The notes below the pieces were generated by a model that saw only the letters and a program-made list of their open reading frames with translations, made no database searches and was not told the origin of the DNA. A program made the position numbers and the translations under genes. This document shows positions 45,224 to 61,471 of a stretch of DNA of 64,000 nt, in pieces (position 1 is the first letter of the stretch; the number at the start of each line of letters is the position of its first letter). The stretch comes from Ignavibacteriota bacterium. GTDB lineage: Bacteria; Bacteroidota; Ignavibacteria; UBA10030. The stretch is from positions 310,366 through 374,365 of the forward strand of contig CAWHXW010000004.1 of assembly GCA_963833465.1 (NCBI GenBank). The letters run 5' to 3'.

Positions 45224-47551
45224 TTATTTTATCGTATCGTTCTTCGATCCGTTTAAATTTCTTTGAAGACTGTCCGGATTAGACCACCTTTGGATTGGCG
45301 GATTATTTTTCGCTTTTGTTGTGTCTTTCTCCAATCCTTTTAAATTTTTTTGAATGCTGTCTGGACCAAGCGGCTTTTGGATTTGCAGATTATTTTTTGT
45401 TTTCGCTGTATCTTTTTCATATCCCTTTAAATTTTTTAGAACATTTTCTGGACTTAACGACTTTTGGATTTGTAGATTGTTTTTAATCTTTGATGTATCC
45501 GCCTTTGCTATGTTGATCTTTATCGTATCAATTTTTGCCGTATCAGATTGTGGGACTTCTGTATATCGTTTCGATGCAGCAAGCGCATACATTGTGCCTT
45601 CATAATTTTTTTTAACCCGCTTGTATTGCACTATAGCGCTATCCGTTTGGTTAAGACAATTTTCCATGATCCATCCGATTGCGTATTCACTTTTAGCCGC
45701 AAAGATTGATTTGGGAAATGACCAAACAATAGATCGGAGCGTTCCAATTGCTTTTTCGTATTGTTTGGAATCAATTTGTTTTTCGGATTGTAAATAGTAT
45801 TCAAACGCAGTGTCTGTTTTCGCAGCAGGGTTTGTTTTTCTAAGGAATCTCCGTGCCTCCTCTGCATAAATCGATTCTGGAAAATCATGATCAAGTCGCA
45901 AATGGTATTCTTCCGGAACTGGAAATTTTTTTTCTGGATTAGTTCTAGAAAGTTCTGCTAGTATATAAAGAACTCGCGGGCTATATTTGTGATCATAACT
46001 CCAAGAGAGAGATTTATTGTACCAAAAGAACGCCGAATCCGGTACTATAATTTCCGAATAAAAAATATCACCTAATTCCTGAGCAGCAATAGACTTGAGT
46101 ACACGAAGTGAATCCGCACTCGGTAGCACCGGCTTAACTGCAGCCTGCAGAGGATTTCGCTGTGCAGTTTCAGAAACGAAGTTTTTGGTTTTAAGAGAAT
46201 CAACATCGGAAATTGCAGATGACGATTTAAACTGCCCTCTAATAGATTTTCGCACGTGCATAGAGTCAGCAGTCGAAAGCATTGGCTTGAAAGCAGCTTG
46301 CGAAGGATTTCGCTTAGTAGTATCAGAAACGAAATTCCTGGCTTTAATGGAATCTATATTGGAAACAATAGTTAGCGACTTATCATGTGCAGCTTTTTGA
46401 CGTGCTAAAGAATCGGTGAATAGAATATTAAGCGTGTCATGAGTCATTTTATGCGTTGTATCGCTGAGAACCAACAACAGACTATCAGCCGTATTTAGTC
46501 GATGCCGTGCATCAAAATAGCGAGTGAGAGCAGCAAATTTTCGGCGTCCTTCCGGAACAACGCTTGATCCTGATGCAGCATTCACTTCCGTATAATATTT
46601 CAGCGCCTTAGTGTAAAGACCAAGCTCCTTTTCGAAGATCAATCCGAGTTTATACGCAGAGCGCACAGCATATTCGGAGTGAGCATACGAAGTGTCAACA
46701 CGAATATAGTCGATAATTGCATCGTCTAGTTTTCCGCTTGCAGCATAATTGTTAGCGCGTTCAAAAAATATCGCCGGCAAATATTCTTTGTTGCGAAAAT
46801 CGTCAATCATTGCATTAATCAATGTTAGTTCTTTTCTCTGTTCTCCAATTATACGATAAGCTATCGATGCTTGCAATTTGCTGTAATAGTTTGAATAAAT
46901 ATCGGAAGTGTAATACTCAGTTCGGAGATATACGTCTGCCGCCTTTTTATACTGACCATCCGCAAAATAAATATCTCCAAGACATATTTGTGCTTCACTT
47001 TTGGCAGCATCATCGCTTGAGATAGATATTACTTTTTCGTATTCAGCAATTGATGTATCCGTTTGATTCATTCTTCGGTATGCCTTGCCAAGTAATTGGT
47101 GCGCTTGAGTTTCTATTTCATTATTATGTTTTGTTTGAGCTGTTAAAACTACAGCATTCCCCAAACGGACGCAGTCATCAATTTTCCCTAATTTCTCTTC
47201 TGTGCGTGCGTACCAAAGCTCTGCCTCCAACGCCAGCGAACTATTTGGAAATTGCGCTAATAATTCAGCAAATTTTCGTTCTGCTTTAAGATATTCTGTC
47301 TGATAAAAGAAGGATTTTCCGATAAGCAGAAGTGCATTATCCACTAAATTGCTTGAAGAATGAAATGCAAGAATATTGGAACACTTATCAATGACCTGTC
47401 CGAACTTTTGTTTTGTCGCATCAGGAATCTGGTTAGATTGCCCGGGAGTAATTTCTTTTCCTCTTGTTAAAATCGCTACCGTTTTAATTTCATCTTCCGC
47501 ATCATAAAAAAGCCTTCTTGCATTATAGTACCCATTAAAGTACGTAATCAT
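45224..47551 (-). CDS. Large TPR-repeat protein with internal tandem sequence repeats
   Basis: 775 aa of TPR-like helical repeats. Near-tandem repeats at the nucleotide level at 46100-46400 (2 x ~135 bp) and 45240-45530 (3 x ~63 bp; KNNLQIQKxLxPxxxxKNLKGxEKDT). Confidence 0.6.
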   Translation of the reverse strand: MITYFNGYYNARRLFYDAEDEIKTVAILTRGKEITPGQSNQIPDATKQKFGQVIDKCSNILAFHSSSNLVDNALLLIGKSFFYQTEYLKAERKFAELLAQFPNSSLALEAELWYARTEEKLGKIDDCVRLGNAVVLTAQTKHNNEIETQAHQLLGKAYRRMNQTDTSIAEYEKVISISSDDAAKSEAQICLGDIYFADGQYKKAADVYLRTEYYTSDIYSNYYSKLQASIAYRIIGEQRKELTLINAMIDDFRNKEYLPAIFFERANNYAASGKLDDAIIDYIRVDTSYAHSEYAVRSAYKLGLIFEKELGLYTKALKYYTEVNAASGSSVVPEGRRKFAALTRYFDARHRLNTADSLLLVLSDTTHKMTHDTLNILFTDSLARQKAAHDKSLTIVSNIDSIKARNFVSDTTKRNPSQAAFKPMLSTADSMHVRKSIRGQFKSSSAISDVDSLKTKNFVSETAQRNPLQAAVKPVLPSADSLRVLKSIAAQELGDIFYSEIIVPDSAFFWYNKSLSWSYDHKYSPRVLYILAELSRTNPEKKFPVPEEYHLRLDHDFPESIYAEEARRFLRKTNPAAKTDTAFEYYLQSEKQIDSKQYEKAIGTLRSIVWSFPKSIFAAKSEYAIGWIMENCLNQTDSAIVQYKRVKKNYEGTMYALAASKRYTEVPQSDTAKIDTIKINIAKADTSKIKNNLQIQKSLSPENVLKNLKGYEKDTAKTKNNLQIQKPLGPDSIQKNLKGLEKDTTKAKNNPPIQRWSNPDSLQRNLNGSKNDTIK

Positions 47552-49949: not shown

Positions 49950-50036
49950 GGAGAGGTGCGAGAGTGGTTGAATCGACCGGTCTCGAAAACCGGAATAGCC
50001 GTAAGGCTATCGAGGGTTCGAATCCCTCCCTCTCCG
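49950..50036 (+). tRNA. tRNA-Ser (anticodon CGA)
   Basis: Sequence GGAGAGGTGCGAGAGTGGTTGAATCG…, anticodon loop CTCGAAA, long variable arm, T-arm GAGGGTTCGAATCCCTC. Confidence 0.85.
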
Positions 50037-50091
50037 CTTTTCCATGCATTTATTTGGAAATGATATAATAGATTAGGATATTTAATTAACT

Positions 50092-50178
50092 GGAGAGATG
50101 CAAGAGCGGTTGAATTGGCTACCCTGGAAAGGTAGTGTATCCGTAAGGGTACCGTGGGTTCGAATCCCACTCTCTCCG
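50092..50178 (+). tRNA. tRNA-Ser (anticodon GGA)
   Basis: Sequence GGAGAGATGCAAGAGCGGTTGAATTGG…, anticodon loop CTGGAAA, long variable arm containing GGGTACC, T-arm GTGGGTTCGAATCCCAC. Confidence 0.85.
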
Positions 50179-50207
50179 CAATACTTCTTGATACGAATAA
50201 AATAATA

Positions 50208-50400: not shown

Positions 50401-51702
50401 ATGAATATTAAATTGCTCCACCGTTTATTTATACTTTTAATTTTCATTTCTATATTTCCAATTGCTATCTTTTCACAGCAAGTTATTTTGTTGAAAATCG
50501 ATGGTGCAATCAATCCTGCATCAGCATCATTTATTGAGCATGGAATTGAAAATGCTACGGAAAAAAACGCCGAATGCCTTATTATCCAATTGAATACACC
50601 TGGTGGATTGCTGCAATCAACTAGAAATATTGTAAGTTCAATACTTGAATCTAAAATTCCAATAATAGTTTATGTCGCTCCAGGCGGCGCACACGCTGGT
50701 TCAGCAGGTGTTTTCATCACGATGGCAGCACATATTGCTGCAATGGCACCGGGAACAAATATTGGGGCTGCTCATCCTGTAGATATGCAGGAAAAAATGG
50801 ATACGGTAATGAGTGAAAAAGTTACGAATGATGCAGCTGCTTTTATCCGCACGATTGCTGAAAAAAGGAAGCGCAACCTGACATGGGCTGAAGAAGCCGT
50901 CCGCAAAAGCCAAGCAATTACTGAAACTGAAGCAGTCTCAAAAAACGTCATAGACTTAATAGCAAAGAACATCGATGACTTACTTGCTCAAATTGACGGA
51001 AAACAAATTGAAACTGTAAATGGTTTGGTAACTCTGCACACAAAAGGCGCTCGCATCGAACAGATTGAAATGGGATGGGCAGAGAAAATGCTTGATACTC
51101 TCAGTGATCCAAACATCGCGTACATTTTATTTTTACTTGGTACTTATGGATTGATGTTCGAATTGTACAATCCGGGTTCTATTTTCCCAGGTATTGTCGG
51201 TGTTATTAGTTTAGTACTTGCGTTTTATACTATGCATACATTGCCAATCAACTATGCCGGGTTAGCGCTTATAATTTTCGGCATCGTACTCTTGCTTTTA
51301 GAAATAAAAATTGTAAGCCACGGTATGCTTGCAATAGGCGGTGCCGTTTCACTTTTCTTAGGGTCTATTATGCTCATTCGAACATCCAGCGTCCTTGAGT
51401 TTGTAGAAATCTCGTGGATTGTCATTATTGTTAGTGTTCTTGTTACAACATTCTTTTTTGTTTTCCTGCTTGGTTTAGGATTGAAAGTACAGCGGAAAAA
51501 ACCGACGACCGGAATAGAAGGATTAATTGGTGAAATCGGTGAAGCGTTTTCTCCGCTGAACCCGGAAGGAACTATCCGGGTGCACGGCGAATTCTGGCAA
51601 GCAGAATCCATAAGTGGAAAGATTTCAAAAGGCGAACACGTTCGTGTTGAAGAAATTCAAAACCTGAAACTCAGAGTTAAACAAGTCAAGTCATCAACAT
51701 AA
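50401..51702 (+). CDS. nfeD: NfeD-family membrane-bound ClpP-class serine protease
   Basis: Signal/TM, ClpP-like domain (IIVYVAPGGAHAGSAGVFI), multi-TM region, and a C-terminal OB-fold. Start at the internal ATG 50401. Confidence 0.8.
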   Translation: MNIKLLHRLFILLIFISIFPIAIFSQQVILLKIDGAINPASASFIEHGIENATEKNAECLIIQLNTPGGLLQSTRNIVSSILESKIPIIVYVAPGGAHAGSAGVFITMAAHIAAMAPGTNIGAAHPVDMQEKMDTVMSEKVTNDAAAFIRTIAEKRKRNLTWAEEAVRKSQAITETEAVSKNVIDLIAKNIDDLLAQIDGKQIETVNGLVTLHTKGARIEQIEMGWAEKMLDTLSDPNIAYILFLLGTYGLMFELYNPGSIFPGIVGVISLVLAFYTMHTLPINYAGLALIIFGIVLLLLEIKIVSHGMLAIGGAVSLFLGSIMLIRTSSVLEFVEISWIVIIVSVLVTTFFFVFLLGLGLKVQRKKPTTGIEGLIGEIGEAFSPLNPEGTIRVHGEFWQAESISGKISKGEHVRVEEIQNLKLRVKQVKSST

Positions 51703-51711
51703 GGAGCATTT

Positions 51712-52476
51712 ATGGAACAGACTGGTGTTTTATTATTTGTTCTAATTTTTTTTGCAGTAATTGTCATTGCAAATTCAGTTAAGATCCTTCGCGAGTACGA
51801 GCGTGGCGTCGTCTTCCGGCTTGGACGAATGGTCGGCGTACGCGGACCCGGCATTATCTGGCTATGGCCATTCATCGAAAGAATGGTAAAGGTAAGTTTG
51901 CGAACAGTGGTTATGGATGTTCCACCTCAGGATATTATAACTCAGGATAACGTTTCTTTGAAGGTGAATGCTGTGGTTTATTTCCGCGTAATACAACCTG
52001 AAAAGGCAATTGTCGAAGTTGAAAACTATTTATTCGCAACCTCACAGCTTTCGCAAACTACTTTGCGAAGTGTGTTAGGGCAATCAGAATTAGATGATCT
52101 TCTTTCACAACGCGATAAGATCAATCAAAAACTCCAGCAAATTATTGATAGTCATACAGAACCATGGGGTGTAAAAGTTTCCAATGTAGAAGTAAAACAG
52201 ATTGACTTACCGCAAGAAATGCAGCGTGCGATGGCTAAACAAGCAGAAGCAGAACGTGAACGCCGCTCAAAAGTTATCGCAGCAGAAGGAGAATTCCAAG
52301 CGTCACAGCGTTTATCCGATGCGGCTAAAGTTCTAAGCGAACAGCCCAGCGCTCTTACATTGCGTTATCTCCAAACGCTTCGTGAAATTGCCACGGAAAA
52401 TAATTCCACAACTATTTTCCCCGTTCCTATAGATTTATTAAAGCCGTTTTTAGAAGTAGCAAAGCTTAAGAAATAA
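51712..52476 (+). CDS. SPFH/band-7 (stomatin-like) protein
   Basis: N-terminal TM, then [15 protein letters not shown]… and a C-terminal coiled coil ([11 protein letters not shown]). It is the classic partner of nfeD. Confidence 0.85.
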
Positions 52477-52479
52477 TGA

Positions 52480-54831
52480 ATGGACAAACTGCTCTATGGA
52501 TATAATACCGAGGAGCGCATCGTCGCTGTACAACAGCTGAACGATCAGACAATCAGATTATTCAAACGAGTTGAAGGGAAGATTTTACATCAAGATGTAG
52601 AATTCTTCCCTTTCTTTTTTCTTTCCGATGAAACACTTATCAAAGACTTTCCTAAAAAGTTTTGGCTTAAGAAGCTTGCAGGAAATAATTTTTATCGCTA
52701 CATCGCCGCCTTTACACGATGGAGCGAGATGTGGGAGGCAGTACATTTTATTCTGCGTCAATATAATAAAAACCATCTGCCACACATTTCTTCTTATCAA
52801 GAATTTAAAGAAATTCTTGTGCGGGCAGACGCTGTACGCCAGTTTCTTCTTCAATCCGGCATTACATTATTCAAAGGAATGAAGTTTGAGGAAATTCTGC
52901 GGCTTCATGTGGATGTGCAATTCGTGCCGGCGATCAAAAAAAAACGAAATGGAAGAAATTCAGAGGAACAAATTCTTGTTATCTCGCTCGCTGATAGCGA
53001 AGGCAAGGAATATTCATTTAGTACTAATAAGCATAATGAGCAAACGGTTTTAAAGCGATGCATCAAGTGTATCAATGCAATAGATCCTGATATTATAGAA
53101 GGTTATGATTTATTTGGAACTATTTTACCGGCACTCAGCCGTGCCTGCGAGCGTTCACAAATTCAGTTTGCGATAGGCAGAGACGGCAGCGACATGCGAA
53201 CACCGACCGGATATGGTGCTGCTAACCCCGGAGAAAGTGAATGGTTTTCTTTTGATGTTTTCGGCAGACATCTCGTCGACCTGTTAGCATTGGGAGAAGC
53301 GGAAGTTGACGCTAAGAAAATTGAACAACCATTCACACTTATTTCATTAGCAAAGCATTTTGGAATTTTAATTGGAACGGAGAATCATATTAATGTACAA
53401 CGGATATTTGAGGAATGGAATCATCAACCGGATCATATCATTAATATATCTCTGCGTAATGTCCGTATTGCGCGTGATCTTTTCAACCATTTATCGCCGC
53501 CGTTATTTTATCTCGCACAAATGTGCCCATTCAACTATCGAATGTTGACACAACTTAGTGCAGTTTCGCGAATCGAATCTTTAATGTTGAGGGAATACGT
53601 CCGCCAAAGATATTCAATCCCCAGAGCAAATGATAATTCACGTTCAATGGCAATCCCATCGGAAATATTTAATATCGGCGTTTTTTCTGATGTCATGTTC
53701 GTTGAATTAGAAGGAGTCCATTCTTTCATTTTATTTCATCAGAACATTAAGCCAAAGACAGATGAATTAGATGTTTTTCTTTTACTACTTACCCACATTT
53801 CTGCAATGCAACGAGAGACTTCCGGTTCGATGGACAGTGAGACGCAACTATCACAAGATTCTGAATACAAATCGAAAGCATTTAAACGTCTTATTGATTC
53901 ATTTCATCTTTATCTCGGTTCAGCACGCGGATTGTTCAATGATCCTGAACAGGCCGGAGTTGTTCTAACCGAAAGCTTGAAAATTCTGAAAGAAATTAAA
54001 ACCCAGATTGAACTTTTCAATGCATCAATTATCCAATCTACCGGTGAGGGATTTTTTCTTATTCCTCCTAATAATATTGTCGGTAAGTCAAATCAGAAAT
54101 ATTTTATAGAACGTCTATCAAGCACATTGCCGGAAGAAATGAGGATTGTTTTAACAAATAGTTACAAACAAATGTTCAGCTACAGAAAAAATAATTACGC
54201 ATTACTGGATCAAAACAACAATGTCCTCATCAAAGGAAACAATCTTATCTCCCGCGGAATAGAACGTTTCCTTAGAGTATTTATTCAACGAATGATAGAG
54301 TGTATGATGACAAATGATTTCAAACGGATGCACCATGCATATGCTACAGCGCACACACAGGTTGTTCAGCATAAGTGGACTCCGGCGGATTTCTGTCGTA
54401 CTGATATTGTACGTATGGATACAGAAACTTACCAAAAGGAAATACTTTCCGGTCAACTAACATCATCGCCGGTAATGGAAGCTGTATTACGTTCAAGTCT
54501 CTTTGTCAAAGCGAATTCAAAGATCTCATATTATTTTACCGGTGATGATATAGGCACCGCGCTAATTCATTCTTCTCGTATAATTGATGAATGGGACCCG
54601 CTTCAGCCAGATGAAAATACGACTTATTACCTTGCGCGTTTACAGGAAGCTGTTGGCAAATTCAAGGAATTTTTTGATCCGGCATCATTTGAGCGAATTG
54701 TCACCTTAGATGAGATGTTTGCTTTTACCGACGAAGGAATCCATACCTTAAATCGAAAAATTGTGCCAGAAACAATAGATACAAAGCTTGAAACCGAGGA
54801 CTATGGCATCTGGCTGGCAGACAATGAGTAG
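52480..54831 (+). CDS. Family-B DNA polymerase (E. coli Pol II-like) homologue with degenerate catalytic motifs, predicted inactive
   Basis: 783 aa. Exo I LVISLADSEG vs LVSIDIETT. Exo II region DPDIIEGYDLFGTILPALSRACERSQIQFAIGRDGSDM vs [38 protein letters not shown]. Motif B-like KRLIDSFHLYLG. Motif A (…SDVMFVELEGVHSF, SLYPS lost) and motif C (IIQSTGEGFF in place of IYGDTDSTFV) lack the catalytic aspartates. Confidence 0.55.
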   Translation: MDKLLYGYNTEERIVAVQQLNDQTIRLFKRVEGKILHQDVEFFPFFFLSDETLIKDFPKKFWLKKLAGNNFYRYIAAFTRWSEMWEAVHFILRQYNKNHLPHISSYQEFKEILVRADAVRQFLLQSGITLFKGMKFEEILRLHVDVQFVPAIKKKRNGRNSEEQILVISLADSEGKEYSFSTNKHNEQTVLKRCIKCINAIDPDIIEGYDLFGTILPALSRACERSQIQFAIGRDGSDMRTPTGYGAANPGESEWFSFDVFGRHLVDLLALGEAEVDAKKIEQPFTLISLAKHFGILIGTENHINVQRIFEEWNHQPDHIINISLRNVRIARDLFNHLSPPLFYLAQMCPFNYRMLTQLSAVSRIESLMLREYVRQRYSIPRANDNSRSMAIPSEIFNIGVFSDVMFVELEGVHSFILFHQNIKPKTDELDVFLLLLTHISAMQRETSGSMDSETQLSQDSEYKSKAFKRLIDSFHLYLGSARGLFNDPEQAGVVLTESLKILKEIKTQIELFNASIIQSTGEGFFLIPPNNIVGKSNQKYFIERLSSTLPEEMRIVLTNSYKQMFSYRKNNYALLDQNNNVLIKGNNLISRGIERFLRVFIQRMIECMMTNDFKRMHHAYATAHTQVVQHKWTPADFCRTDIVRMDTETYQKEILSGQLTSSPVMEAVLRSSLFVKANSKISYYFTGDDIGTALIHSSRIIDEWDPLQPDENTTYYLARLQEAVGKFKEFFDPASFERIVTLDEMFAFTDEGIHTLNRKIVPETIDTKLETEDYGIWLADNE

Positions 54832-55086
54832 TCGGATAAAGTAAAAGACCACTTGCTAACACTTGCATTTTAATACACGAAATTGTAATATTTGTTTGTA
54901 GTTCACTGCACCGGTTTTGTCTTATCGTTATTTGTTTTAGCTGTCGCGTCGTACCATTATTAATTTGATTCTTTGGATCCGATGCATATAAGCTGAGCAA
55001 GATAGATGTAAGATGTTGAGTGCACTTCTTTCAATGAAAGACAAAATTGCGGTGTTATGTTAAATGCATCAAGGGGATGAACCCGT

Positions 55087-55290
55087 ATGGAACATGGTAC
55101 AGTAAAATGGTTCAATAATACAAAAGGATATGGCTTCATCAAACGGGAAAGTGGTGAAGACGTGTTTGTGCATTACAAGTCGATCAACGGAGACGGCTAC
55201 AAAACGCTTAATGAGGGCGACAAAGTAGAATTCGAAGTTGAACAAGGCCCCAAAGGATTGCAGGCGGTAAAAGTTTTAAAACCTGCTTAA
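55087..55290 (+). CDS. cspA: Cold-shock protein (CspA family)
   Basis: [18 protein letters not shown]…, with RNP1/RNP2 motifs. 67 aa. Confidence 0.95.
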
Positions 55291-56055: not shown

Positions 56056-56463
56056 TCAGCGAAACATCGCTTTAATACTGCCCCAAGTACGTTTTGCAGC
56101 CGAACTTGTACTGCTATAGATGATACTTCTACTGCTGCTTGTCAGCGAATAGCCTGCACCTACCGCTTTTACTTTATAATAAAACAATTTATCTACCGTT
56201 TTAAATAAATCAGTTTTATCAACAAAATATAAAGTACCTTTTGGCGTATTACCGATATCGCTGAAAGTTCCATTGATATCGGTACTTCTATATATTTCAT
56301 AATGATCAACACTGTTGTCCTCGTCAAACGTCCAATTAATCAAAACGCCATCACTTTGTACAACAAGTCGAGTAATCTGTGGAGCGGATGTTTGAGCAAA
56401 CACCAAGCCGTTAGAAATTAATAGAAGAATAATGAAAAGTATATATCTTTGGCCTGCTTTCAT
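56056..56463 (-). CDS. Hypothetical secreted protein with Fn3-like fold
   Basis: Signal peptide; YEIYRS…GTFSDIG resembles a fibronectin type III strand pattern. Confidence 0.4.
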   Translation of the reverse strand: MKAGQRYILFIILLLISNGLVFAQTSAPQITRLVVQSDGVLINWTFDEDNSVDHYEIYRSTDINGTFSDIGNTPKGTLYFVDKTDLFKTVDKLFYYKVKAVGAGYSLTSSSRSIIYSSTSSAAKRTWGSIKAMFR

Positions 56464-59602: not shown

Positions 59603-61471
59603 TTATGTCCTCCCAAACCTTTTATCAAGTTCTTCTAGCGGAATTTTAACAATCACCGGCCTGCCATGTGGACAAACATACGGCACTTTAGTAAGAAATA
59701 AATGTTCGATCAGCACAACCATCTCTGTTGTATTCAATCTATCGCCCGATTTGATCGCTGCTTTGCACGCAAAAGATTTCGCCAGATTGTCTCGTACATC
59801 TTTCACGCCCATGTGCTCGTTGTTTTTGAATTCATCTAACACTTCCAGCAATATTTTTTTTTCTTTTCCAATGCGGACATCCGCCGGAATACCATCTATC
59901 ACAACCGTGTTTTTACCGAATAAACGCATGTCGAAGCCAAGCCGGACAAGGTCTGGCAATAATTCTTTTGCTAAGGAATAATCGCTTGCACCAAGGTCAA
60001 TGGTTTCCGGGAACAAAAGCTGCTGCGAAGACGGTAAAGTGTTCTCAAAATTCGCCATCACGCGTTCATAGAGAATTCGTTCATGCGCAGCGTGTTGATC
60101 AATAATCATCAATCCATTATGAATCTGTGAAATAATATATTTGTTATGTGCCTGCCAAATCGGTCTGCTTTCCGGTATCTGCGATTGATCTAACGCCGAT
60201 CTCTGCCCAAGTATATGATTGAGTGAAGACAAAGAAGAAGACCCGTCAAATGGCAACGGAGATTCAGAATTTGAAACAGAAGATTTTATATCATCAAGGC
60301 CAATAATATTAGATATTGTTTGTACTGATTGTTCGCCAAATCGAACGTTAGGGTGAAACGGAAACACTGGAGCGCCAGATTGATCAATAATTCCTTGTTT
60401 CCATGTTTGTTCGCTAAATTGAAACTTAGCGTCAAGCGGTGAAATTGCGTTTCCTTCACGAAACGACATGGATGGAATCAAATCGTTTGCCGCGAGCGCT
60501 TTCCGCACAACAGACAGAATAATGCGATAGACATTCGATTCATTTTCAAATTTCACCTCCATCTTTGATGGATGGACATTGACATCAATTTTCTTTGGAT
60601 CAATTGTAAGATTTAGAATAAAGAACGGAAACGATCCTTTCTCCAATAAATGTTCATACGCTTGAAAAACAGCATGGTTAATCATTCGGCTAAAAATAAA
60701 TCGTCTATTCAGAAAAACAAATTGTTCCACGCGGCTTTTGCGTGAAAAATTTGGTTTACCGAGGAATCCATTCACAGACATTAATTCATTGACGTCATCA
60801 AATTTGAACATAAAACTATATTGAGATTTACCAAATACTTCCGCTACGCGTCTTTCGATGTCTTGCGATTTCAGATCGAGCATAACTTCGTCGTCACTTG
60901 CATAAAACCATTCAATTTCAGGATATGCAAGTGCCATCCTGACAATTACATCGGTTATATTTTTTAGCTCCGTGTATTTTGTTTTTAGAAAATTTCGCCG
61001 CGCAGGAGTATTGTAAAATAAATTACGAACTGTAATGTTTGTCCCGCATTCCAGTGCCGACTTGGATTTCTGTTTTATCTCGCTGCCTTCGATCCTGATG
61101 TATGTTGCAAGATCATCAGAATCTGTTCGAGTTTTTAATTCCACTTGCGCAACTGCTGCTATAGAAGCAAGCGCTTCACCGCGAAATCCAAGCGTCCGGA
61201 TTTCTTCCAGATCGCTTGCAGAATGAATCTTGCTCGTAGCATGCCTTCGGAATGCGAGCGATGCATCTTGTTCCGACATTCCTTCACCATCATCCACTAC
61301 TTGGATTGATGCTTTACCAGCATCTCTGATTATTACGCTGATGCGCCTCGCATTGGCATCAAGTGAATTCTCAATTAATTCTTTGACAACAGCAGCAGGA
61401 CGCTGCACAACCTCACCAGCGGCAATTTTGTTGGATAATTCAGGCGATAATATGTGAATCTTATAAGACAC
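59603..61471 (-). CDS. mutL: DNA mismatch repair protein MutL
   Basis: N-terminal GHKL ATPase (IAAGEVVQRPAAVVKELIENSLDA), a DNA-binding region, and a C-terminal dimerisation domain. 622 aa. Confidence 0.9.
   Translation of the reverse strand: MSYKIHILSPELSNKIAAGEVVQRPAAVVKELIENSLDANARRISVIIRDAGKASIQVVDDGEGMSEQDASLAFRRHATSKIHSASDLEEIRTLGFRGEALASIAAVAQVELKTRTDSDDLATYIRIEGSEIKQKSKSALECGTNITVRNLFYNTPARRNFLKTKYTELKNITDVIVRMALAYPEIEWFYASDDEVMLDLKSQDIERRVAEVFGKSQYSFMFKFDDVNELMSVNGFLGKPNFSRKSRVEQFVFLNRRFIFSRMINHAVFQAYEHLLEKGSFPFFILNLTIDPKKIDVNVHPSKMEVKFENESNVYRIILSVVRKALAANDLIPSMSFREGNAISPLDAKFQFSEQTWKQGIIDQSGAPVFPFHPNVRFGEQSVQTISNIIGLDDIKSSVSNSESPLPFDGSSSLSSLNHILGQRSALDQSQIPESRPIWQAHNKYIISQIHNGLMIIDQHAAHERILYERVMANFENTLPSSQQLLFPETIDLGASDYSLAKELLPDLVRLGFDMRLFGKNTVVIDGIPADVRIGKEKKILLEVLDEFKNNEHMGVKDVRDNLAKSFACKAAIKSGDRLNTTEMVVLIEHLFLTKVPYVCPHGRPVIVKIPLEELDKRFGRT

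Follow-up and report, generated by a model that had tools for sequence, protein, structure and literature searches.

The family-B DNA polymerases (PolB) of the bacterial G3, or Pol-epsilon-N-like, group are characterized in the literature by exonuclease and polymerase sites that are both conserved and by a beta-clamp motif, and they have been reported for all Chlorobi (PMC12926913, a 2026 survey). The Glu in the motif C sequence E-x-DTDG is a synapomorphy joining Pol-epsilon-N, archaeal B10 and bacterial G3 (Kazlauskas et al. 2020, PMC7544198). The present analysis concerns a polB-like gene located behind nfeD and an SPFH gene in a 64,000-nucleotide (nt) stretch of an Ignavibacteriota genome (GenBank assembly GCA_963833465.1, contig CAWHXW010000004.1, positions 310,366 to 374,365 of the forward strand), the whole of which is referred to as the window. 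The gene product, named iPolB, is a family-B homologue in which the motifs of both active sites are degenerate, and it is reasonably likely that it is a G3 orthologue that has lost both activities and has been kept, from an inherited operon, as a non-enzymatic partner-binding and possibly DNA-binding protein. All of the related loci come from metagenome-assembled genomes (MAGs) of Ignavibacteriota, which we take to be the sister lineage of Chlorobi, or of Bacteroidota.

By comparing iPolB with the described G3 polymerases, the same size and architecture are found (approximately 780 amino acids (aa), with N-terminal, exonuclease, palm, fingers and thumb domains), and the active members of its subfamily have E-x-DTDG. 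On the other hand, both of its sites are degenerate, Gln replaces the motif C Glu, and an acidic DYGIWL tail takes the place of QLxLF; the G3 papers (PMC7544198, PMC12926913) mention neither an nfeD-SPFH operon nor sublineages with a dead exonuclease (exo-dead) or a dead polymerase (pol-dead) site. With E. coli Pol II, of group G1, iPolB shares the family-B fold, a similar length and an alignable DPD.I.G...GRD.S stretch in the exonuclease region; Pol II itself is catalytically intact and SOS-regulated, ends in QLGLF and lies outside any nfeD-SPFH operon. The archaeal PolB2 and bacterial G2 proteins, which Rogozin et al. reportedly classed in 2008 as 'inactivated' PolB and which were long annotated as inactive, resemble iPolB in their disrupted exonuclease motifs and non-canonical motif C. 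However, they belong to a B1-3-like rather than an EpsilonN-like clade, keep one invariant motif C Asp and are active in translesion synthesis, and neither of the PolB2 partners, PPB2 and iRadA, is encoded at the iPolB locus. The scaffold-type dead polymerases, i.e., the Pol-epsilon C-terminal module and ImuB, which is an inactive polymerase of the Y family and carries a clamp motif, are similar in that the fold outlives the catalytic residues and partner motifs are retained under selection; this is an analogy and not a membership, as they belong to other families and have other partners (CMG/Dpb2; ImuA/DnaE2). Finally, the two upstream genes resemble the NfeD-stomatin operons of the PH1510/PH1511 type, in which a long NfeD (Ser-Lys protease, membrane and OB domains) is followed by an SPFH gene and the NfeD protease cuts hydrophobic C-terminal segments of the stomatin partner. 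The known operons are two-gene units, whereas the window has a conserved third gene, the PolB homologue.

Family-B homology and placement among the PolB groups

In a phmmer search of the PDB, iPolB matched the archaeal PolB of KOD, Tgo, Pfu and 9°N with E values of 1e-14 to 1e-9; the matched residues form two stretches, which extend over the exonuclease and palm/fingers regions. The family profile matched Pfu/KOD at 2e-59, Pol alpha/zeta at approximately 1e-22 and E. coli Pol II at 2.7e-20. The AlphaFold2 (AF2) model, computed from a 30-sequence alignment, has a predicted local distance difference test (pLDDT) score of 85.7 and a predicted template modeling (pTM) score of 0.81, and disorder is confined to the loops 153-160 and 243-255 and the tail 764-783. 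When this model was searched with Foldseek, full-length archaeal PolB structures were aligned at E values of approximately 1e-37 over approximately 790 columns, with the best TM score (0.74) obtained against editing-mode complexes. All parts of the family-B architecture (N-terminal, 3'-5' exonuclease, palm, fingers and thumb) are present. The similarity far exceeds chance, and iPolB is a true family-B DNA polymerase homologue, as had been proposed in the initial annotation, which was made from the nucleotide sequence without database searches; the profile and structure comparisons are both significant.

A Pfam scan including PF00136 and PF03104 returned nothing at E<=1 for iPolB itself, whereas one or both of these models match its relatives at 33-42% identity. 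The homologue series is graded, the members at 53-79% identity also being without a Pfam match, so the absent match of iPolB is ascribed to sequence divergence with the homology still there; the two Pfam models put forward in the initial annotation thus recognize the relatives but not the protein in question. The designation 'Pol II-like', made at the same time, did not survive. The DPDIIEG...GRDGS stretch aligned to Pol II is real but weak (3k57 residues 216-257, E=0.8), the shared length of 783 aa is a coincidence, the profile finds Pol II at 2.7e-20 versus approximately 1e-59 for archaeal PolB, and the active relatives have E-x-DTDG. Assignment to the Pol II group (G1) was rejected, given that the NCBIfam Pol II model NF004421 scores 1.4e-10 and 40 bits against a cut-off of 570 and that the protein ends in DYGIWLADNE. 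PolB2/G2 was also rejected, since motif C is without the invariant Asp, the neighbors are nfeD, SPFH and csp, and the nearest active relatives have a full DTD and Exo III.

By its sequence relationships, iPolB can be placed as a degenerate branch of bacterial G3 PolB in Ignavibacteriota-type MAGs. The active relatives have the motif C E-[VA]-DTDG (EVDTDG or EADTDG). An exhaustive search of 1.8 billion cluster representatives gave 986 matches at E<=1e-3, and the more distant relatives among these representatives have EVDTDG and end in QLGLF, QLRLF or QLQLF. The G3 assignment follows from the fit of E-x-DTDG in the active relatives and of the QLxLF ends in the distant ones to published G3 polymerases. 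In iPolB itself, the synapomorphy position is Gln (E519Q); consequently, its own G3 membership rests on orthology and phylogeny, the latter being a neighbor-joining (NJ) tree with the QLxLF-tailed relatives as the outgroup.

Catalytic motifs and selection

The motifs of iPolB were read in one alignment with the active relatives (Table 1). None of the polymerase motifs A (DxxSLYPS), B (KxxxNSxYG) and C (DTD) is found in iPolB, which has VELEGVHSF, KRLIDSFHLYLG and STGEG at these places, and none of the exonuclease motifs I (DxE), II (NxxxFD) and III (YxxxD) is found, the corresponding segments being VDVQF, YDLFGTI and ISLRN. In the phmmer alignment, motif C of iPolB is paired with SDTDGFF of KOD. 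The losses in motifs A and C, Exo II and Exo III listed in the initial annotation are therefore all real. Among the related proteins with degenerate polymerase motifs (the dead clade), E519Q is present in 98%; position 523 is Asp in 34% and otherwise N, R, Q, G, E or H; and position 409 is usually E and in exceptional members K, T or D. The residues conserved in the active forms and gone in the dead forms cluster in GGY-x-D 391-395, motifs A, B and C, Exo I and Exo II. In addition, the net charge of the fingers changes from +2.4 in the active forms to -1.7 in the dead forms, and this loss of positive charge disfavors retained dNTP binding. Together with the degenerate motif B, it makes the nucleotide-binding module that had been suggested for this protein unlikely. 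Based on these substitutions, both the polymerase and the exonuclease activity of iPolB have presumably been lost.

It is very unlikely, in our estimate, that iPolB is instead a still active, unconventional polymerase using a non-canonical acidic set (E409, E411 and E523; D521/D523 in relatives). PolB2 and the primer-independent PolB, in which one motif C Asp is missing, would be precedents for such an enzyme; iPolB has Glu at both metal-ligand positions, its close relatives have D-G-D, the Lys of motif B and the K-x-Y region are in part still present, and the overall fold is intact. However, the second acidic residue of motif C varies in the clade (N, R, Q, G, H or V), and some members have K or T at position 409. 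The steric-gate Tyr, SLYPS, the Asn and Tyr of motif B and GGY-x-D 391-395 are all gone, the basic charge of the fingers is lost, and constraint is lowest precisely in the fingers and exonuclease domains.

The family was followed through 87 genome-derived and 80 metagenome-derived loci, which were collapsed to 147 non-redundant near-full-length genes; motif states were assigned by regular expressions on MAFFT alignments (E, exonuclease; P, polymerase; +, intact; -, degenerate). The ratio of nonsynonymous to synonymous substitution rates (dN/dS, pairwise NG86) is 0.11-0.19 in the dead clade, 0.09-0.17 in the exo-dead genes and 0.04-0.08 in the fully active unlinked genes, the value of 0.86 for the pair L033/L017 having been left out as an artefact of a mis-called open reading frame (ORF) start or frame. 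When PolB identity was calibrated on the neighboring maf gene (at 70-80% Maf identity), values of 0.79 for E+P+, 0.64 for E-P+ and 0.60 for E-P- were obtained, which is relaxation in steps rather than decay. The mean majority fraction in the dead clade is highest in the N-terminal domain (0.87), followed by the exonuclease domain (0.71), and lowest in the fingers (0.65); in the active enzymes, the N-terminal domain is the least conserved (0.61), with 0.73 in the exonuclease domain and 0.70 in the fingers. Constraint has shifted away from the catalytic domains and now bears on the N-terminal domain and the C-terminal tail.

Hardly any credence can be given to the view that the adjacency to nfeD and SPFH is accidental and that the protein is a functionless, decaying relic, i.e., a slowly dying pseudogene. 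The dead forms evolve faster than the active orthologues relative to maf and SPFH, and iPolB has no Pfam match, as might be expected of such a relic. However, the dN/dS of the dead clade effectively refutes it: purifying selection maintains this clade, and iPolB is therefore not a pseudogene. Uninterrupted ORFs of approximately 760-800 aa stand at the same locus down to 27% identity, full-length ORFs being present at over 40 non-redundant loci and spread over many clusters at 50% identity; residues of the N-terminal domain and the tail are invariant, and the fold is confidently predicted.

The nfeD-SPFH-polB operon and the C-terminal tail

The two genes upstream of polB are a canonical NfeD-stomatin pair, with the expected NfeD domains and an adjacent co-directional SPFH gene. 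NfeD aligns with the 1510-N protease of P. horikoshii PH1510 at E=5e-37, including both residues of the Ser-Lys catalytic dyad, and with the STOPP OB domain at 1e-10. Its start was set at ATG 50401, giving 433 aa, in preference to TTG 50335, since the relatives have 429-430 aa. The nfeD stop codon TAA overlaps an AAGGAG sequence 5 nt before the SPFH ATG, the spacer between the two genes being 9 nt. The spacer between SPFH and polB was measured as 3 nt, which bears out the earlier description of polB as a third, co-directional and tightly coupled gene behind the pair. From this arrangement, polB is predicted to be cotranscribed as the third gene of nfeD-SPFH-polB and is probably translationally coupled. 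An anti-phage defense system was considered and rejected, as PADLOC returned nothing relevant for the operon proteins, giving a partial match of the PolB exonuclease region to a long homing-endonuclease (HEase) model and a generic cold-shock domain (CSD) match.

Among the 147 genes, 24 of the E+P+ forms are operon-linked, 25 are unlinked and 4 are of unknown context; the corresponding numbers are 49, 3 and 0 for E-P+ and 40, 0 and 2 for E-P-. No pol-dead copy was thus found outside the operon in this set, and all 40 with known context are linked. The active, exo-dead and dead forms all occupy the same syntenic slot, which reads peroxiredoxins-PTPS-FolE ... [nfeD-SPFH]-polB-csp-(B12-binding)-maf-EamA-DUF362-UbiA-MutL, and because this slot is shared they are taken to be orthologues. 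Since active and exo-dead orthologues also reside in the operon, the operon predates the inactivation, and the link specific to the inactivated form that was implied in the initial annotation does not hold (24 active and 49 exo-dead genes are linked as well). The median SPFH-polB spacer is 3 nt in the dead, -4 nt in the exo-dead and 11.5 nt in the active forms, with many overlaps of 4-26 nt; where N-termini were over-extended by the ORF-start rule, the SPFH gene was verified by tblastn. The identity of the SPFH gene is 70-96% over all linked loci.

The trio is kept despite altered flanks at three loci (L088, L102 and L125). In L088, which is nested in the clade of the window gene with 96% bootstrap support, a gene for an outer-membrane protein (OMP) lies upstream and aminotransferase/GNAT genes lie downstream, and the spacer is 0 nt. 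In two canonical QLxLF-tailed outgroup G3 genes, nfeD and SPFH are not adjacent. Together with the confinement of polymerase-motif loss to operon members, this suggests that the nfeD-SPFH-polB trio is more than passive synteny. The 28 unlinked genes group in a single clade with 100% bootstrap support, which lies nested within the linked active forms, i.e., the operon was lost there.

A simple progression from exo-dead to pol-dead forms, as read from a midpoint-rooted tree, was not upheld: the outgroup-rooted tree splits the pol-dead clade from the main exo-dead clade, with weak support, and has two exo-intact/pol-dead representatives at the base of the pol-dead clade. Two IWL-tailed proteins, P0135 (= L172) and P0139, combine intact exonuclease motifs (DIE and NxxxFD) with degenerate polymerase motifs and may be stand-alone proofreading-type proteins; as context, Chlorobi-type genomes are described as being without a recognizable DnaQ proofreader for DnaE1 (2026 survey, PMC12926913). 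The exo-dead, pol-intact G3 orthologues of the 49 linked loci, including L006, L020-L026, L029-L035 and L038-L044, are predicted to be low-fidelity polymerases.

Two short elements stand out in the subfamily. The first is the N-terminal motif D-[VAE]-[ED]-FFPFF, in which D39, F42, P44, F45, F46 and L48 are invariant in active and dead members alike and which is absent from the QLxLF-tailed G3 outgroup members. The second is the acidic tail peptide, TEDYGIWLADNE in iPolB, with the motif E-D-Y-G-I-W-L-A-D, in which I777 is invariant and the conservation of W778 and L779 reaches at least 90%, against a variable tail before the motif. Of the 113 operon-linked genes, 108 have IW[LI], compared with 0 of the 28 unlinked genes, in which Y-S-I-E-F-D-D or S-I-x-L-D is seen instead, and the outgroup G3 members carry the QLxLF clamp motif at the position of the IWL tail. 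Among 50%-identity cluster representatives of 700-860 aa, the polymerase motifs are degenerate in 22/27 IWL-tailed proteins vs 10/80 others, a count which is suggestive, as the ranking was by similarity to a dead query and lineages that evolve fast are divided among more clusters. Because the unlinked genes form a single nested clade, the associations of the IW tail with the operon amount to one or two evolutionary events.

The tail may be a partner-binding motif, because it is placed like QLxLF and gives a loose hexapeptide fit (Q-L-S-L-P-L vs D-Y-G-I-W-L), and its most likely partner would be the sliding clamp. In the same window, the C-terminal region of MutL (59603-61471, minus strand) contains QQLLFP, a canonical motif of the clamp type and a hint that the host beta clamp takes standard Q-x-x-L-x-P/QLxLF ligands.

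These observations could be explained as follows. The nfeD-SPFH-polB arrangement would have arisen while the polymerase was still active and would then have been inherited. The polymerase of this subfamily would have gained the DVEFFPFF motif and, at the position of QLxLF, the C-terminal acidic [YF]-G-I-W-L tail. The metal- and substrate-binding residues of the exonuclease and polymerase sites have been lost with the full PolB fold kept, and once catalysis was lost, selection would have concentrated on the N-terminal motif and the tail. Finally, iPolB would now be a non-catalytic partner-binding factor, with the sliding clamp as the likeliest partner and possibly with DNA as another, co-expressed with the NfeD/stomatin membrane-quality-control pair. 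Since selection keeps iPolB throughout a bacterial lineage, invariably in third place behind the membrane protease/stomatin pair, it probably has a non-enzymatic role, which has so far not been described.

Several points weigh against this explanation. The Glu residues E409 and E523 of the window protein are conservative changes, the closest relatives retain D-G-D in motif C, and archaeal PolB2, also judged inactive by its motifs, later proved active in translesion synthesis (PMC8764526, PMC11791011). The clamp assignment rests on position, disorder and a loose QLSLPL-type fit only, and the usual Gln is absent. The association of the IW tail with the operon traces to essentially one or two events, and since synteny within the phylum extends over the entire 10-kb block, the conservation of the trio is only partly independent evidence. 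The trees are NJ trees with 50 bootstraps, and long-branch attraction may account for the monophyly of the dead forms (68%). In addition, the analysis covered this locus, and another PolB may be encoded elsewhere in the source genome.

The same operon data bear on a possibility that takes up the membrane-scaffold idea of the initial annotation: the PolB-fold protein would physically belong to the NfeD/stomatin membrane complex or be one of its clients, its IWL tail or N-terminal domain being bound by the NfeD OB domain or the SPFH oligomer or cleaved by the NfeD protease. In this way, a DNA-binding protein would be tethered to the membrane or regulated there. We regard this as unlikely, although much is in keeping with it: the junctions are tight or overlapping at more than 100 loci, the trio survives changes of its flanks, the IW tail follows linkage (108/113 vs 0/28), catalytic death is confined to operon members, the outgroup G3 genes are without both the tail and the operon, and NfeD is canonical with its dyad intact, PH1510-type proteases being known to cleave stomatin C-terminal hydrophobic segments. 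However, this support for an interaction is indirect, one or two phylogenetic events account for the associations, and unrelated genes often share operons. The tail framework [YF]-[GS]-I-x-[FL]-D-[DE] is also found in the unlinked clade, with the Trp alone differing, as would suit a motif of generic type, e.g., one for the clamp, and a literature search found no link between SPFH/NfeD and a polymerase. A wider form of this idea, in which the trio is a three-part module whose PolB-fold protein, still an enzyme in part of the lineages and inactive in many, is docked or processed by NfeD/stomatin via the IWL tail and/or the N-terminal motif and links the replisome or DNA binding to membrane microdomains or stress signaling, is distinctly unlikely in our view; its non-catalytic function would then be primary, from which the loss of catalysis only inside the operon would follow. 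The retention of iPolB as a non-enzymatic partner-binding protein remains our preferred reading, with any functional tie to NfeD/SPFH being putative.

An inactivated PolB associated with an NfeD/stomatin pair appears to be undescribed, as the initial annotation had supposed, none having come up in the searchable literature. Both the G3 group and inactivated polymerase homologues as such are already known. In two systematic PolB surveys and full-text searches, there was no deep, widespread doubly inactivated G3 clade, no exo-dead G3 grade, no conserved nfeD-SPFH-polB operon and no IWL tail in place of the clamp motif; in the supplements of both surveys, Ignavibacteria occur in the genome list only. 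G3 PolB thereby gains a large, deep, doubly inactivated clade and an exo-dead set, and both contradict the generalization of intact sites (PMC12926913). The active, exo-dead and pol-dead orthologues at one locus provide a natural series from a replicative-type polymerase to a non-enzymatic protein. Dead proteins (P0004, P0006, P0009 and others) are publicly annotated as 'DNA polymerase I', 'DNA polymerase, archaea type' or 'DNA polymerase elongation subunit (family B)', and as 'hypothetical protein' at NCBI; because dead proteins are annotated as polymerases, censuses of Ignavibacteriota polymerases will over-count active enzymes. The operon with a membrane protease/stomatin pair is unexplained and has been reported by neither the NfeD/SPFH nor the polymerase field. 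If functional, the link would give both fields a new handle; the cellular roles of NfeD/SPFH are poorly defined. The evolutionary pattern is solid and unexpected, and it does not directly address long-standing questions.

Neighboring features in the window

The features of the operon and its downstream neighbor are collected in Table 1.

Table 1. Positions of the genes, junction and motif remnants at the nfeD-SPFH-polB locus (numbering of the window)
Feature	Position	Strand	Remarks
nfeD (NfeD1b type)	50401..51702	+	ClpP-like membrane protease, membrane domain, C-terminal OB partner-binding domain; Pfam NfeD1b_N, NfeD_membrane, NfeD
SPFH/stomatin-family (Band_7) gene	51712..52476	+	PF01145 at 2.2e-41
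SPFH stop/polB start junction	52474..52482	+	TAA-TGA-ATG (TAATGAATG); 3-nt spacer
Degenerate G3-type family-B DNA polymerase homologue (iPolB)	52480..54831	+	783 aa; homology, fold, motif loss, dN/dS
N-terminal-domain motif DVEFFPFFFL	52594..52623	+	aa 39-48; subfamily-specific, invariant columns in active and dead members
Exo I remnant HVDVQFV	52906..52926	+	active QLDIETY; E147Q
Exo II remnant GYDLFGTILPA	53101..53133	+	active GHNIFNFDLPY; N210D, N213G, D215I
Exo III remnant INISLRNVR	53440..53466	+	active YALDDV to ISLRNV; Tyr and Asp gone
Motif A remnant FVELEGVHSFI	53698..53730	+	active ADVESLYPSI; D409E, S412G, Y414H, P415S; SLYPS gone
Motif B remnant KRLIDSFHLYLG	53884..53919	+	active KILINSFYGYLG; N473D, Y476H, G477L; Lys retained
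Motif C remnant QSTGEGFF	54034..54057	+	active EVDTDG to QSTGEG; E519Q, D521T, T522G, D523E
C-terminal short linear motif DYGIWLAD	54799..54822	+	aa 774-781; acidic disordered tail, pLDDT <50 for 764-783
cspA-like cold-shock gene	55087..55290	+	67-aa CSD ORF; PF00313 gene at same place in relatives

Downstream of polB come csp and then maf, which is encoded on the other strand. The interval between polB and csp (54832-55086) contains a conserved promoter-like element, TTGCAT-N17-TAATAT (54863-54891), within CTTGCATTTTAAT...TTGTAATATT (54862-54892), and then a leader whose 5' element, CACTGCACCGG-TTTTGTC (54904-54921), is complementary to the conserved GACAAAATTGCGGTG (55040-55054) just before the csp start. 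The minimum free energy (MFE) fold of this leader is -50 kcal/mol for 200 nt, with a long-range helix around a variable middle, and no Rfam family was matched at the gathering threshold; the leader looks like that of a cold-shock mRNA or a thermosensor. Because of its conserved promoter-like element and leader, csp is probably its own transcription unit, with the operon comprising nfeD-SPFH-polB. A scan for sigma-70 promoters and terminators performed no better than on shuffled sequences, and an Rfam search over the window found tRNAs only.

Two tandem tRNA-Ser genes lie immediately upstream of nfeD on the plus strand (49950-50037 and 50092-50179, anticodons CGA and GGA), and spurious ORFs of 84-93 aa overlap both of them on either strand. 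Between maf and EamA, the window contains a minus-strand ORF (56056-56463) for a secreted-looking protein of 131-136 aa without a Pfam match, which is found at this place in most related loci, among them L002-L007. Finally, a TPR protein of 775 aa (45224-47551, minus strand) has two kinds of internal tandem repeats in its C-terminal half, one of approximately 45 aa (...RNFVSDTTKRNPSQAAFKPMLSTADSMHVRKSI... / ...KNFVSETAQRNPLQAAVKPVLPSADSLRVLKSI...) and one of approximately 30 aa (KNNLQIQKSLSPENVLKNLKGYEKDT...) present in three copies.

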